A stretch of DNA of 64,000 nt from Bacteroidota bacterium (GTDB lineage: Bacteria > Bacteroidota > Bacteroidia > Palsa-965). The position numbers and the translations under genes are program-made. Position 1 is the first letter of the stretch. Each line of letters opens with the position of its first letter. The notes under the pieces were generated by a model. The model did no database searches. It was not told where the DNA came from and worked only from the letters and a program-made list of their open reading frames with translations. This document shows, piece by piece, positions 19,981 to 24,136 of this stretch. The stretch lies in NCBI GenBank assembly GCA_020402865.1, contig JADBYT010000021.1, forward strand, positions 73,314 to 137,313, in the 5' to 3' direction.

Positions 19981-20229
19981 ATGAAAACGCTATTACTCAG
20001 TTTGTTTCTGTTTCCGGGTGCCGATGTTCCCGCAGAGGTAAAAACAGAAAGCGCATTCCAGATAAAAAACCGGCATATTGAATTTACCCGCTATATACAG
20101 GCTGATTTACTTACGGTGAAAGAAACCGGAGGTAATTCAATTTGGGTAGCCCGCATTAACTGCTTTCGCCACGAGTATAAAGTGGTGGGCGAATTGAACA
20201 CATTACACATTAAAGCCAAACGCTCATGA
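19981..20229 (+). CDS. Small hypothetical protein
   Basis: 82-aa ORF whose stop overlaps the padR-like start (ATGA), suggesting translational coupling. No motif recognised. Confidence 0.4.
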   Translation: MKTLLLSLFLFPGADVPAEVKTESAFQIKNRHIEFTRYIQADLLTVKETGGNSIWVARINCFRHEYKVVGELNTLHIKAKRS

Positions 20230-20663
20230 ACATTGAGAACACCAAAGCCCAGATGCGCAAAGGGGTGCTGGAGTTTTGCATTCTCTCCATTCTTTCAGAC
20301 GGAGATGCTTACCCCACCGAAATTATTGAACGCATGAAACTGGCCCGGCTTGTAGTGGTGGAAGGCACGCTCTATCCGCTGCTTACCCGCCTGAAAAACA
20401 TGGACTTACTCACCTACCGCTGGGAAGAATCAACCTCAGGGCCGCCGCGTAAATATTACCGGCTTACCGAAACAGGTATTAGTTTTTTACGCGAACTGGA
20501 AGCCACCTGGGACGAACTGGTGGCCTCGGTAGAGCAGGTTACCCAAAAGCCGCAGCAGCAGGCCATATCAGCCGCAGTGCCTTTTAATCCGGAAGCTGCT
20601 CCGCAGCCCGAAAAACAAGCAAACAACCACACAACCACCAACGATAATACTGAAGTACAATGA
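20226..20663 (+). CDS. PadR-family transcriptional regulator
   Basis: Winged-helix PadR pattern KGVLEFCILSIL...YPTEII...EGTLYPLLTRL...RKYYRLTE. Confidence 0.9.
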   Translation: MNIENTKAQMRKGVLEFCILSILSDGDAYPTEIIERMKLARLVVVEGTLYPLLTRLKNMDLLTYRWEESTSGPPRKYYRLTETGISFLRELEATWDELVASVEQVTQKPQQQAISAAVPFNPEAAPQPEKQANNHTTTNDNTEVQ

Positions 20664-22453
20664 ACAAGACGGTAACCATCAATATCAGCGGCATTATTTT
20701 TCATATCGAGGAAGATGCGTTTGAGGTATTGCGCAATTACCTGCAAACCCTGCGCAACCGTTTCAGCCAGGAAGAAGGCTGCGACGAAATAATGGCCGAC
20801 ATTGAAGCCCGCATTGCCGAACTGCTCAAAGCCAAAACCGGTATTTCGAAAGAGGTGATTGTGATGGCCGACGTAGAAGGCGTAATTGCCGTAATGGGCA
20901 GCCCCGAATCGTTTGCGGAAGGCGAAGAACCCCAGCAAACACAAAATACCGGCCAGCAAAACCAGCAGAACCAGCAAAACAATACCGGCCAGCAAAGCTA
21001 CTCGCGCGGATACGCCCGCCGACGGCTCTTCCGCGATCCCGACGACCGTATTATTGGCGGTGTTTGCGCCGGTTTGGGACATTATTTCGATATCAATCCC
21101 ATCTGGATCCGCCTTACACTGGCCGTGAGCTTCTTTGTATTCGGTTCAGGATTTCTGCTTTACATACTCCTGCTCATCATTATGCCCAAAGCCGAAACCA
21201 CAGCCGAAAAGCTTGAAATGCGCGGCGAGCCGGTTGACGTAAACAACATAAGCCGAAGCATTAAGGATGATTTCGAAAACTTCAAACGGCGCATGGAGGA
21301 TCTGGGCGAAGAAGCCAGCAACTGGGGTAAAAAACAGTTCGGATCGGCCCGCGAAAACTATAACAGCGAACGCCGAAACAGCCGTGGCATTGAACGGGTG
21401 CTTGGGTCACTATTTGAAGTAGCCGGGCGCGTGTTTTCTTTTGTACTGCTCGTAATAGGTGTAGGCATACTCATCGGCATACTTACGTCAACCTTTACCT
21501 TTCACCGCGTGGGCCCCGACGAACTTGGCCATAGTTTCAGAAACCTGTTCAGCAGCAACAGCGATTACATACTTGCCATTATTGCCTTCTTCCTCGTGTT
21601 CGGTATTCCGGCCATGATGATGATTTATCAGGGAATTAAAGCACTTTTCAATATTAAAGTAACAACTAAGGTAATTGGATATAGCGCCCTGTCGCTCTGG
21701 TTTATAGGTATCGTTATTGGCATCTACTGCGGCGTGGGCGTGGCTTCCAATTTCCGCCACAGCGGTCACATTACCGAACGCTTTAATTTTGCCAGTCCGG
21801 CACCCGATACCCTGCAGCTTTCGGTAAATATTGACTCCGATCTGGAAAACGAAACCTATAATTATCGCCACAAGAAATATAAAAATCACGACCGCCGCTA
21901 CGCGTATTTTGCAGTAACCAACGAAGGCATGAAATTCGGTACCACCGAACTGCATATTATCCCTTCGCAAACCGGCCAATATGAGCTGGTGATACACAAA
22001 TACTCCGAAGGCAGTACCCGCGAAGAAGCCGGTCTGCTGGCACGAGAAATACGTTTTCAGTTGCGTCAGGAAGGGAATAAACTCATCATCCCCGGTTCAT
22101 TTACCATTGGGCACGACCAGAAATGGCGGGCGCAGGAAGTGGAGCTTGAGCTACATGTACCTCAGGGAAAGGTAGTTAACCTTGACCAAAGTACACGTGA
22201 AATCATTCACAACGTGGACAATGAGCAAAACACCTATGACCCGAATATGGCAGGCCGCCGCTGGCGTATGGGTAAAGACATGCTGACCTGTGTGGATTGC
22301 GACGGACTTGATATGGAGAATACAAATTCCAAAGCCCGTGAAAATTCGCAAGCCAATAAGCAAGCCGACAGTACAGCCAAAGCGCAGGATGAACTGGAAA
22401 AGAAAATTCAGCGTGTGGCCGACAGTATTCGCAATGCGGCCGGGAAAAAATAA
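20660..22453 (+). CDS. PspC domain-containing membrane protein
   Basis: PspC motif RLFRDPDDRIIGGVCAGLGHYFDINPIWIRL followed by TM helices. Overlaps the padR stop; PadR-PspC pairing is common in Bacteroidota. Confidence 0.85.
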   Translation: MNKTVTINISGIIFHIEEDAFEVLRNYLQTLRNRFSQEEGCDEIMADIEARIAELLKAKTGISKEVIVMADVEGVIAVMGSPESFAEGEEPQQTQNTGQQNQQNQQNNTGQQSYSRGYARRRLFRDPDDRIIGGVCAGLGHYFDINPIWIRLTLAVSFFVFGSGFLLYILLLIIMPKAETTAEKLEMRGEPVDVNNISRSIKDDFENFKRRMEDLGEEASNWGKKQFGSARENYNSERRNSRGIERVLGSLFEVAGRVFSFVLLVIGVGILIGILTSTFTFHRVGPDELGHSFRNLFSSNSDYILAIIAFFLVFGIPAMMMIYQGIKALFNIKVTTKVIGYSALSLWFIGIVIGIYCGVGVASNFRHSGHITERFNFASPAPDTLQLSVNIDSDLENETYNYRHKKYKNHDRRYAYFAVTNEGMKFGTTELHIIPSQTGQYELVIHKYSEGSTREEAGLLAREIRFQLRQEGNKLIIPGSFTIGHDQKWRAQEVELELHVPQGKVVNLDQSTREIIHNVDNEQNTYDPNMAGRRWRMGKDMLTCVDCDGLDMENTNSKARENSQANKQADSTAKAQDELEKKIQRVADSIRNAAGKK

Positions 22454-22459
22454 TTGCAC

Positions 22460-22495
22460 GGAACTGTAACTATACGTCCTGTCTGTTCGTCTTAT
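22460..22495 (+). promoter_or_regulatory. ECF-sigma-like promoter motif (copy A)
   Basis: GGAACTGTAAC, then 17 nt, then CGTCTTAT. This fits the generic ECF pattern (AAC in -35, CGT in -10). The same motif recurs at 23127. Confidence 0.4.
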
Positions 22496-22553
22496 TCACA
22501 ACAGCTCCCCATTTTGGTTAGGTATTCAGGACCTGTTTCATGCAATTGAATGA

Positions 22554-22589
22554 GATACGCCGGTTTCGCAGCCCGGCGTATCTTTTTTT
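22554..22589 (+). terminator. Intrinsic terminator (copy A)
   Basis: 10-bp stem GATACGCCGG / CCGGCGTATC, loop TTTCGCAGC, then T7. Confidence 0.75.
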
Positions 22590-22618
22590 ATGACCTTTGC
22601 CAAAATTCACAGCTATAT

Positions 22619-23101
22619 ATGAATACCGAGAGCCGCGCTGCTTATCTGATCCGTCATTTACACATGCAGCCGCATCCCGAAGGCGGGTACTATGCCGAGC
22701 ATTACCGCTCGCAGTTGCTGGTGGAACGCCAAAACGAGGCGCCTCGCAGTGCGGTAACTTCAATTTACTATCTGCTTCAGCAAAATGAAGTTAGCCGCTG
22801 GCATGTAGTGGATGCCGACGAGATCTGGCACTGGCACGAGGGCAACGAGCTGGAACTTTGGCTGGTGAATCCGGAAATTACGCAATTGCGTGTAATCAGG
22901 CTCGGCCAGCCGGGGGCTGATACGCAGCCTTCGGCGGTGGTGCCGGCGGGCTGGTTTCAGGCCGTGCGTTCTACCGGCAGTTACAGCCTTTGCGGCTGCA
23001 CGGTGGCTCCGGCTTTTCAGTTCAGCGGGTTCCGTTTTACCTCCCCGCAGGAAGCCGAAAAACTAAGCCAGCTACACCCCGATGCAGCCGCGTTTTGTTA
23101 A
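22619..23101 (+). CDS. DUF985-type cupin protein
   Basis: Start placed at MNTESRAAYLI. Motif HLHMQPHPEGGYYAEHYRS is typical of cupin_5/DUF985. The longer ORF from 22550 would run through the terminator hairpin. Confidence 0.85.
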   Translation: MNTESRAAYLIRHLHMQPHPEGGYYAEHYRSQLLVERQNEAPRSAVTSIYYLLQQNEVSRWHVVDADEIWHWHEGNELELWLVNPEITQLRVIRLGQPGADTQPSAVVPAGWFQAVRSTGSYSLCGCTVAPAFQFSGFRFTSPQEAEKLSQLHPDAAAFC

Positions 23102-23126
23102 GAAATTAAAAAATACACCTCCGGGC

Positions 23127-23156
23127 TGTAACGAAATACACATTTCAGCGTCTTAT
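23127..23156 (+). promoter_or_regulatory. ECF-sigma-like promoter motif (copy B)
   Basis: TGTAAC, then 16 nt, then CGTCTTAT. Paralogous to 22465-22495. Confidence 0.4.
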
Positions 23157-23231
23157 ACCTGAACATCCTCCCAACCTTTGGTCAGGTCTGTTTCTTTTGG
23201 GAGGAATTTGTTTCGTGCAATTGGTGTGCAG

Positions 23232-23270
23232 GAAAAGCCGGCTTTCGCAGCGTCGGCTTTTCCTTTTTTC
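23232..23270 (+). terminator. Intrinsic terminator (copy B)
   Basis: Stem GAAAAGCCG / CGGCTTTTC, a loop containing TTTCGCAGC, then a T-rich run. Confidence 0.7.
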
Positions 23271-23359: not shown

Positions 23360-24136
23360 ATGGCCAATCACGACGCACACCACGACGGACACGACCACGA
23401 TCATGATCACACCGAAGGCAACCGCCAGTATTATCCCAAAGGCTGGTGGATTCCGCTGGTGGCGCTTGTAGTTTTTGCTATAGGTTTTGCCGGTTTGGGC
23501 GGCTGGCTCTTCAGCCTTTCCGGTACCGACCGCTGGGGCAAACACAGTGCCGATGACGAACACGGACATGGCGGCCACAAAACCGAAATGGCAGCTCACC
23601 ACGATGGCGACAAGCACGAGGCTGATCACAAGCACACTTCAGAAAATGATTCTATGCTTGCTCCCGACAGCAACATGGTGATTACGAAACTGAACGACGG
23701 CAAAGAAATCAGCGGTGCTCCCAATGGCATCGAATCAGCACTGGTGGCTTTTATCAGCGATGCAGCAAAGCCGGTTGACAAAACCACCTGGTTTACATTC
23801 GACCGTCTTGTATTTGAAACCGGCAAAGCCAGCCTCAACCTGAACGACGCCGGAACCCTGGCCCAGCTTGATAACATGGCCGCTGTGTTGAAAGCATATC
23901 CGGCTGTAGAGCTGAAAATTGGCGGTTATACCGACAATACCGGCAAAAAAGAAGACAACCAGAAACTTTCGCAGCAGCGCGCAGAGTCGGTTATGGCCGA
24001 AATTGCAAAGCGCGGCATTGACGCAAAACGCCTCGCCGCAGAAGGCTACGGCGATCAGTTCCCCAAAGCCGATAACAGCACCGAAGAAGGCCGCGCTCAA
24101 AATCGCCGTATTGATGTGCGTGTAACCAAAAAATAA
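23360..24136 (+). CDS. OmpA-family (peptidoglycan-binding) protein with His-rich N-terminal regions
   Basis: C-terminal OmpA_C pattern GGYTDNTGKKEDNQKLSQQRAESV...NRRIDVRV. N-terminus is MANHDAHHDGHDHDHDH, then one TM helix, then DDEHGHGGHK...HHDGDKHEADHKH. ATG at 23360; the ORF track starts at a TTG at 23324. Confidence 0.85.
   Translation: MANHDAHHDGHDHDHDHTEGNRQYYPKGWWIPLVALVVFAIGFAGLGGWLFSLSGTDRWGKHSADDEHGHGGHKTEMAAHHDGDKHEADHKHTSENDSMLAPDSNMVITKLNDGKEISGAPNGIESALVAFISDAAKPVDKTTWFTFDRLVFETGKASLNLNDAGTLAQLDNMAAVLKAYPAVELKIGGYTDNTGKKEDNQKLSQQRAESVMAEIAKRGIDAKRLAAEGYGDQFPKADNSTEEGRAQNRRIDVRVTKK

Follow-up and report, generated by a model that had tools for sequence, protein, structure and literature searches.

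A stretch of 64,000 nucleotides (nt) of contig JADBYT010000021.1 from a Bacteroidota bacterium (assembly GCA_020402865.1), referred to below as the window, contains two paralogous elements, A and B, on the two sides of a gene for a DUF985 cupin. Each consists of an extracytoplasmic function (ECF) sigma-type promoter, a conserved core and an intrinsic terminator. Do these elements produce small RNAs in their own right, or are they terminator-controlled leaders of the genes that follow them? Both had been proposed in an earlier reading of the letters without database searches (the sequence-only reading). We favor, at a probability of about 60%, that A and B encode ECF-dependent sibling small RNAs acting in trans, which double as a 3′ untranslated region (3′UTR) in the case of A and as a 5′ leader in the case of B.

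All the sequence blocks that the sequence-only reading listed as common to A and B were found at the places it gave (Table 1). The composite TGTAAC-N15-18-CGTCTTAT occurs twice in the window and not at all in 100 shuffles. The terminator hairpins of both elements are confirmed by folding, and the fold z-scores of the two RNAs against shuffled controls are −3.1 and −3.5. A generic terminator scanner missed both terminators because its loop limit is 8 nt. Element B contains no ATG, and a 44-amino-acid (aa) open reading frame starting with TTG spans its terminator.

The promoter blocks lead to one particular sigma factor. The motif TGTAAC-N16/17-CGTC(T/C/A)TA lies ahead of an orthologous ECF sigma gene in 25 out of 25 genomes of the genus, 18–51 nt before the ATG, and the orthologues are 85–99% identical. 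This link first surfaced in one relative (G021) during a promoter-motif scan of the relatives' loci. Such placement is a hallmark of an autoregulated ECF sigma gene, as this one appears to be. In the host genome (4.89 Mb in 49 contigs, 48.6% G+C, 100% complete), the gene is on contig C12 and encodes a 161-aa protein, whose best NCBIfam match is the sigma_PG0214/GFO_1088 family with 117 bits, just below the 130-bit cut-off. Among the 18 sigma-70-family paralogues of the host, only this one is preceded by the strict motif.

A position matrix was then made from 24 sigma-gene promoters of other species, and both strands of the host genome were scanned with it (9.8 million positions). The A promoter ranks first with 29.7 bits, the B promoter sixth with 24.8 bits, and the sigma gene's own promoter seventh with 24.7 bits. 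Nine sites genome-wide score above 23 bits, and all of them are intergenic. Protein genes at the top sites include those for two outer-membrane beta-barrel proteins (one with a Plug domain and a CarboxypepD_reg domain), for a transglutaminase-like protein, for a DUF4386 membrane protein and for a DUF4932 protein, so that the predicted set of sites looks like an envelope regulon. The generic ECF pattern of the sequence-only reading has thereby been narrowed to the autoregulatory motif of one conserved sigma factor, with A and B among its nine best sites, and we infer that the two RNAs depend on this factor in the cell.

The sigma operon itself lies outside the window (contig C12, ~191,555–194,091, minus strand) and comprises the sigma gene, a gene for a 658-aa protein and two tandem MsrB genes. 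The 658-aa protein, which has about five internal repeats and one transmembrane (TM) helix, is probably the anti-sigma factor, and the two MsrB methionine-sulfoxide reductases hint at an oxidative component of the stress signal.

Whole-genome blastn and pattern scans of the host assembly found no third copy of A or B. Because the genome has only two copies, the generic dispersed repeat that the sequence-only reading had named as its possible undoing is excluded; a mobile element is ruled out too, with just these two copies and a syntenic position across the genus.

How widely the family extends was examined by a covariance model built from 22 B-type copies. The model matches 24 of the 27 genus genomes. 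Of the three that it fails to hit, two are incomplete (66% and 72%), and in the third, G003, the sole match, obtained by sequence search, is 42 nt long and cut by a contig end. It also recovers A-type copies, and its scores are 50 bits for RNA A (E = 4e-10) and 113 bits for RNA B. Clear B homologues are present in nearly all genus genomes, and A homologues only in the three closest species; the A-type copies outside the host are those in G017, G022 and G026. The model has no match in the other two genera of the family, which constitutes the whole order (35 genomes). Inspection downstream of pspC, however, revealed that a second genus (G027 and G029) has a homologue which is diverged but whose TTCTGTTTCGTGCAA core is identical; in G029, a GTAAC-N17-CGTCTTA promoter is present too. 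Core-pattern matches in other contigs and genera were mostly coincidences in coding sequences, the only true homologues being those in G027 and G029. Thus, of the three genera that make up its one-family Bacteroidota order, only two were found to have the family; the metagenome sources of the order are mostly freshwater and in some cases soil. No part of the window matches Rfam at the gathering thresholds, and in the best sub-threshold matches (rnk_pseudo, 23.7 of 55 bits; STnc250, 22 of 42 bits) only the terminator is aligned. The paralogy noticed from two copies is therefore that of a real RNA family with no Rfam match.

In 31 copies, the RNA fold consists of a 5′ hairpin (P0–P1) with CG↔UA covariation, the near-invariant core UCUGUUUCGUGCAAUUGGUGUGCAG, and a covarying terminator (P3) with a conserved UUUCGCAGC loop; RNA B has an additional small hairpin (P2), which RNA A lacks. 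In the alignments, 89–90% of the cells assigned to pairs are paired, against 74–77% in column shuffles (89% against 74% in A3, the model-guided alignment of the 31 copies). None of 500 shuffles reaches the observed value, and sliding the 3′ partner by 1–3 columns leaves pairing at 55% at most. P0, where the leader GAACA pairs with UGUUU of the core, is 93% paired with one-sided GU↔AU changes. P1 is a 6-bp stem of a pyrimidine arm and a purine arm, and shows two-sided changes in five of its six pairs (for example, CCUCCC/GGGAGG, CCUCUC/GAGAGG, CCCCUC/GAGGGG and CCUUUC/GAAAGG), while the 11-bp terminator stem P3 shows them in all 11. The stem of P2 (GUGCA-loop-UGUGC) is almost invariant, so covariation cannot test it; because it includes two G-U pairs, P2 can form on this strand only.

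Three unpaired motifs are common to the sibling types: the P1 loop contains GGUUAGGUCAGGU, and the other two are the core and the loop of the terminator. The core is almost invariant over 25 nt across the genus while its flanks have diverged, and its first 15 nt are identical in the second genus. Conserved unpaired motifs standing beside freely varying stems point to selection at the RNA level, beyond a promoter and a terminator. A DNA operator within the core is unlikely, as the P2 stem requires G-U pairs and CAATTG lies outside any longer palindrome.

One to three sibling copies are present per locus. Type B occurs in 23 out of 23 genomes examined, type C in five species, type D in two, and type A in the host clade. 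Every copy has an ECF-like promoter except a degenerate extra copy in G007. This third copy (L077:1692-1832 = G007:C31:36860-37000) is 190 nt after B and has kept the core and the terminator; its ECF promoter and P1 loop motif are gone, and it has an extra hairpin within P2.

Table 1 Features of the two elements and their surroundings in the window.
Feature	Position	Strand	Basis or remark
Element A	22464-22589	+	All blocks listed by the sequence-only reading present, same order
Element B	23126-23270	+	All blocks listed by the sequence-only reading present, same order
CTGTAAC block	A 22464-22470; B 23126-23132	+	
Spacer between CTGTAAC and CGTCTTAT	A 17 nt; B 16 nt	+	
CGTCTTAT block (−10)	A 22488-22495; B 23149-23156	+	
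TTTGGTYAGGT block	A 22513-22523; B 23177-23187	+	
TGTTTCRTGCAATTG block	A 22534-22548; B 23209-23223	+	
TTTCGCAGC block	A 22564-22572; B 23243-23251	+	Loop of GC-rich hairpin (A 12 bp, B 13 bp)
T-run	A 22583-22589 (T7); B 23264-23269 (T6)	+	
ECF-type promoter of A	22464-22495	+	−35 CTGTAAC, 17-nt spacer, −10 CGTCTTAT
ECF-type promoter of B	23126-23156	+	−35 CTGTAAC, 16-nt spacer, −10 CGTCTTAT
Predicted RNA A, ~92 nt	22497-22589	+	Fold and covariance-model match; 5′ end inferred from promoter
RNA A 5′ hairpin	22500-22504 (AACAG) with 22533-22537 (CUGUU)		UUGGUUAGGU in loop
RNA A core	22534-22548		UGUUUCAUGCAAUUG
RNA A terminator	22552-22563 with 22573-22584		Loop UUUCGCAGC, then U7
Predicted RNA B, ~112 nt	23157-23270	+	Fold, alignments A2/A3, covariation counts, covariance-model match
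RNA B P0	23161-23165 with 23209-23213		
RNA B P1	23166-23173 with 23198-23205		UUUGGUCAGGU in loop
RNA B invariant core	23203-23232		
RNA B P2	23215-23219 with 23225-23229		
RNA B P3 (terminator)	23230-23242 with 23252-23264		Loop UUUCGCAGC at 23243-23251, U-run to ~23270
PadR-family regulator gene, first of usual upstream operon	20226-20663	+	Pfam PF03551, E = 5e-17
HAAS-PspC-LiaI/LiaF-TM-Toastrack membrane sensor gene	20660-22453	+	Pfam PF22564 (23.8 bits, under the 27-bit cut-off), PF04024, PF22571, PF22744
DUF985 cupin gene between A and B	22619-23101	+	Pfam PF06172, E = 7e-46
His/Asp-rich single-TM protein gene with OmpA-like C-terminal domain (OmpA-His), downstream of B	23360-24136	+	Pfam PF00691

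Transcription was examined in assembled contigs of relatives, ~90–97% identical to the window, from environmental metatranscriptomes. X25 is apparently the same data as X24, filed twice; at least three of the metatranscriptomes are independent. The contigs in X24/X25, X26 and X27 start at 23171, 23180 and 23187, that is, 10–30 nt after the predicted B start (~23157–23161), and these data have no contig coverage over 22987–23133, which comprises the 3′ end of DUF985 and the promoter. From B, contigs in X24/X25, X26, X27 and X6 run unbroken through the terminator into the OmpA-His gene. These observations support promoter activity at B, and read-through transcripts exist. For element A, a contig in X27 extends from the 3′ end of pspC into the core, and no other contig holding A was found in the RNA runs searched. 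Because contig depth is flat and libraries of this kind usually lose small RNAs, an abundant species of ~110 nt is neither shown nor excluded by these data.

Upstream of the RNAs, 17 of the 23 examined loci have a PadR gene and a PspC gene within 3 kb on the same strand. The PspC gene of five genomes is located 5 kb or more from the RNA or on a different contig. A PadR regulator paired with a HAAS-PspC-LiaI/LiaF-TM-Toastrack protein is a known membrane-stress signaling dyad (PMC11237479). The envelope-related setting suspected by the sequence-only reading is borne out by this dyad being the usual upstream neighbor, as well as by the regulon-like sites at genes for outer-membrane and exported proteins. 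In the window, the pspC stop codon is 11 nt from the −35 box of A. As there is no separate terminator for the padR-pspC operon, A serves at the same time as the operon's 3′UTR.

Downstream of the RNAs, the arrangement bears on the strongest rival explanation, in which A and B are cis-acting leaders or attenuators. The ECF promoter would then serve mainly the downstream gene (DUF985 for A, the His-rich/OmpA-like gene for B), and the short RNA would be a by-product, with the hairpins and the terminator setting the level of read-through, possibly under the influence of temperature, a protein or a ligand. The contigs running without a break from just past the B promoter into the downstream gene fit this explanation. 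A co-oriented gene follows B at 80–250 nt in most genomes, being in ~11 of them the gene for the His-rich single-TM protein (fused to an OmpA-like domain only in the host clade), and only 30 nt separate the A terminator from the DUF985 start codon. The conserved terminator loop, too, could be a binding site that modulates termination. On the other hand, the element has been kept with hardly any change in genomes with a convergent downstream gene (G014, G015 and G007) and in eight genomes where that gene encodes an unrelated RRM RNA-binding protein and has its own sigma-A-type promoter, TAtcTTTG (consensus in PMC7366714). The OmpA-His gene has a sigma-A-type −7 box of its own, TATGTTTG, read from the sequence between the B terminator and the ATG, and DUF985 directly follows pspC with no A copy in G007, G011 and G015. 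Thus, neither flank is a fixed companion of the element, and this speaks for an autonomous gene. Moreover, no conserved antiterminator pairing was found in the alignment, and the terminator arms vary freely while the core is invariant. Neither a constant class of downstream gene nor mutually exclusive terminator and antiterminator folds, by which riboswitches and attenuators are recognized, were found in this family. We therefore regard a mainly cis-acting role as unlikely.

Sibling small RNAs acting in trans are favored because the flanks vary, sibling copies exist and the loops are conserved. We conceive that the sigma factor, when released from its membrane anti-sigma partner, would transcribe its own operon, genes for exported and membrane proteins including outer-membrane barrels, and the RNAs A and B. 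Most transcripts would stop at the strong intrinsic terminator, yielding a short RNA of ~90–115 nt that is composed of the long 5′ hairpin (P0–P1), the near-invariant core and the terminator with its conserved loop. The conserved loop and core sequences would be its likely working surfaces, and it would most probably act in trans without Hfq, either by pairing with mRNA or by binding a protein. In cis, A would form the 3′ end of the padR-pspC transcript, and read-through from the B promoter would make B the 5′ leader of the mRNA for the His-rich membrane protein. As both RNA genes sit behind promoters that match a conserved ECF sigma factor of the envelope type, the stress response of the host lineage probably includes a non-coding arm.

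Hfq (PF17209) has no match in the host genome, although it was detected in control genomes. The dependence on Hfq that is a trait of proteobacterial sigmaE small RNAs is accordingly absent here, but this trait marks the proteobacterial examples rather than the functional class.

Targets in the host genome were sought with RNAduplex, using the sequences of the P1 loop, the linker, P2 and the terminator loop against ~3,900 crudely defined start regions. Across the genus, a scan for TGCAYGAAACAG, which is complementary to the core, gave ~70 matches versus ~19 for a reversed control. After removal of RNA genes and intragenic sites, the remaining start-codon cases are an M43 protease gene in the host, a lipoprotein gene in G012, and one secreted-protein gene common to G011 and G015. 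The candidate target in the host encodes a pappalysin-like M43 metalloprotease secreted by the type IX secretion system, and its start-codon region UGCAUGAAACAG (C12:163522-163533; gene 163524-165636) is complementary to the RNA A core at 12 out of 12 positions. It ranks second for the A core and seventh for the B core. An exact-site scan gave no match at a protease start in other genus genomes, where the orthologues were not directly inspected. Incidentally, another ECF sigma gene (C12:161581-162082) precedes this gene by ~1.4 kb.

Several results weigh against the sibling small RNAs as we conceive them. The best RNAduplex scores equal or scarcely exceed those obtained with shuffled seeds, and the core-complement matches, once the RNA genes are removed, are nearly all random intragenic sites, so that neither the duplex nor the pattern searches reveal an mRNA target conserved across the genus. 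The invariant core is partly paired in P0 and P2, and may therefore be no free seed. Trans action is weakened by these two points, the lack of a conserved predicted target and the pairing within the core. As for expression, read-through past the B terminator proceeds at similar depth, which fits a leader role too; the X6 contig starts at 23132, inside the B promoter; and a discrete short transcript is unseen in the assembled contigs of relatives. Finally, the link of A and B to the sigma factor is one of sequence, and a similar motif, GCAAC-N16-CGTCTTT, precedes a second ECF sigma gene (C46, minus-strand position 251107), so that the promoter specificities of these two sigma factors may overlap.

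In a second rival explanation, A and B are decoys or partners of a protein. The UUUCG motifs, present in the core (GUUUCGUGCA) and in the terminator loop (GUUUCGCAGC), and the motif of the P1 loop would be recognized by an RNA-binding protein, for example the RRM protein encoded alongside in some species. In stress, this protein would be titrated or recruited by the RNA. All three unpaired motifs are kept across all four sibling types, unusually including a terminator loop, and UUUCG is common to two of them; the absence of Hfq agrees as well, as does the failure of the searches to find a base-pairing target. Twelve of the 27 genus genomes have a single-copy RRM_1 gene, and in 8 of these 12 it adjoins B, ~90–100 nt downstream. 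However, the host genome lacks the gene, as do 15 of the 27 genomes of the genus, so that its product is ruled out as a general partner. The eight adjacent cases may trace back to a single ancestral rearrangement, and no other candidate protein was identified. We consider this explanation quite improbable.

Examples of the RRM_1 gene are found at L068-L082 (such as L079:1714-1995), at G025:C60:10377-10586 and at seven similar places; next to B, the gene has a CA-rich leader besides its own promoter.

As a last rival, A and B might be a promoter and a terminator set back to back as mere punctuation around pspC and DUF985 with functionless RNA between, and indeed A is the only terminator of the padR-pspC operon and each element has both signals, but this is very hard to believe since a functionless spacer would not retain such a core amid diverged flanks and into a second genus, compensatory changes in P1 and three conserved loop motifs.

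A more detailed version of the sibling small RNAs can be offered as a tentative proposal, for which we would not claim even odds. A and B would be the first ECF-sigma-controlled RNA family in Bacteroidota, consisting of Hfq-independent siblings with two sensing inputs, one through their own ECF promoters and the other through their place as the 3′ end of the operon for PadR and HAAS-PspC. Via their loop motifs, they would act on mRNAs for exported proteins, for instance at AUGAAACAG start regions, or on an RNA-binding protein.

The envelope stress response of E. coli has a non-coding arm, and A and B can be compared with MicA, RybB and MicL of Enterobacteria and VrrA of Vibrio. Like the RNAs predicted here, these are short, end at an intrinsic terminator and are made from promoters that an envelope-type ECF sigma factor recognizes, and the sigmaE regulon includes outer-membrane protein genes as does the regulon predicted here. 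MicL, like A, has its ECF promoter at the 3′ end of another gene. In contrast, A and B share no sequence or Rfam likeness with them, occur as tandem siblings and belong to a host without Hfq. The sigmaE small RNAs repress mRNAs for outer-membrane proteins and lipoproteins, whereas for A and B the duplex and pattern searches found no target of this kind conserved across the genus. A also resembles CpxQ, which derives from the 3′UTR of cpxP, and other 3′UTR small RNAs in lying at the 3′ end of an envelope-stress operon and using a common terminator, but A has its own promoter, as in the MicL/DapZ type of 3′UTR small RNA. Paralogous copies with a common core under one regulator, sometimes adjacent, are known from OmrA/B, PrrF1/F2 and Qrr1-5; these differ in their regulators and chaperone dependence, and the A and B copies are interleaved with protein-coding genes.

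Closer in setting are FoxI and FoxJ, experimentally validated sigmaE-dependent small RNAs of Fusobacterium nucleatum (PMC11005410). They have the ECF dependence that is proposed for A and B, and their Gram-negative lineage likewise lacks Hfq and is distant from Proteobacteria. The phylum is another, the sequences are unrelated, and the evidence on A and B is comparative and metatranscriptomic. Their occurrence in Hfq-less Fusobacterium means that a non-coding arm arose more than once. Among Bacteroidota small RNAs, GibS and others of Bacteroides thetaiotaomicron (PMC7366714) and Rfp18 of Flavobacterium psychrophilum (PMC9723704) resemble A and B in being Hfq-independent, structured, intergenic or UTR-linked, and terminated intrinsically, with loops thought to be pairing regions. 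Neither paper ties a small RNA to an ECF promoter, and there is no sequence relation to A and B. According to PMC7366714, ECF sigma factors of B. thetaiotaomicron had no known recognition motif, and the ECF motif with a CGT box in PMC9723704 is described for protein-coding genes only. Full-text literature searches found no published ECF-dependent small RNA in Bacteroidota. A and B are a new RNA family, and their phylum would be a new one for the combination of a sigma factor with small RNAs.

Since Hfq and ProQ are missing, RNA regulation in Bacteroidota is poorly understood, and ECF sigma factors are very numerous in this phylum. The locus provides a testable case, having a defined sigma/anti-sigma pair and a predicted nine-site regulon rich in outer-membrane proteins. 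It also offers a structured RNA with conserved surfaces and natural variants, such as loci with one to three siblings and with or without an adjacent RRM gene. If our reading is true, Bacteroidota would be the third phylum, besides Proteobacteria and Fusobacteria, with an independent origin of the design that joins an envelope-stress sigma factor with small RNAs, even though the family, with its inferred function, is confined to one small order.

Two minor observations concern the neighboring genes. On the minus strand, a terminator-like hairpin with a T-rich tail is present at 23069-23090 within the 3′ end of DUF985, with no minus-strand gene that would apparently need a terminator. The commonest gene after B encodes a His/Asp-rich single-TM family (MAHHE..H.HD.TEG.RQYYP.GW...; for example, at L070, L074, L076, L080, L088 and L089), which is 117–140 aa long in most species, is fused to an OmpA-like, peptidoglycan-binding domain in the host clade only, and may bind metal.

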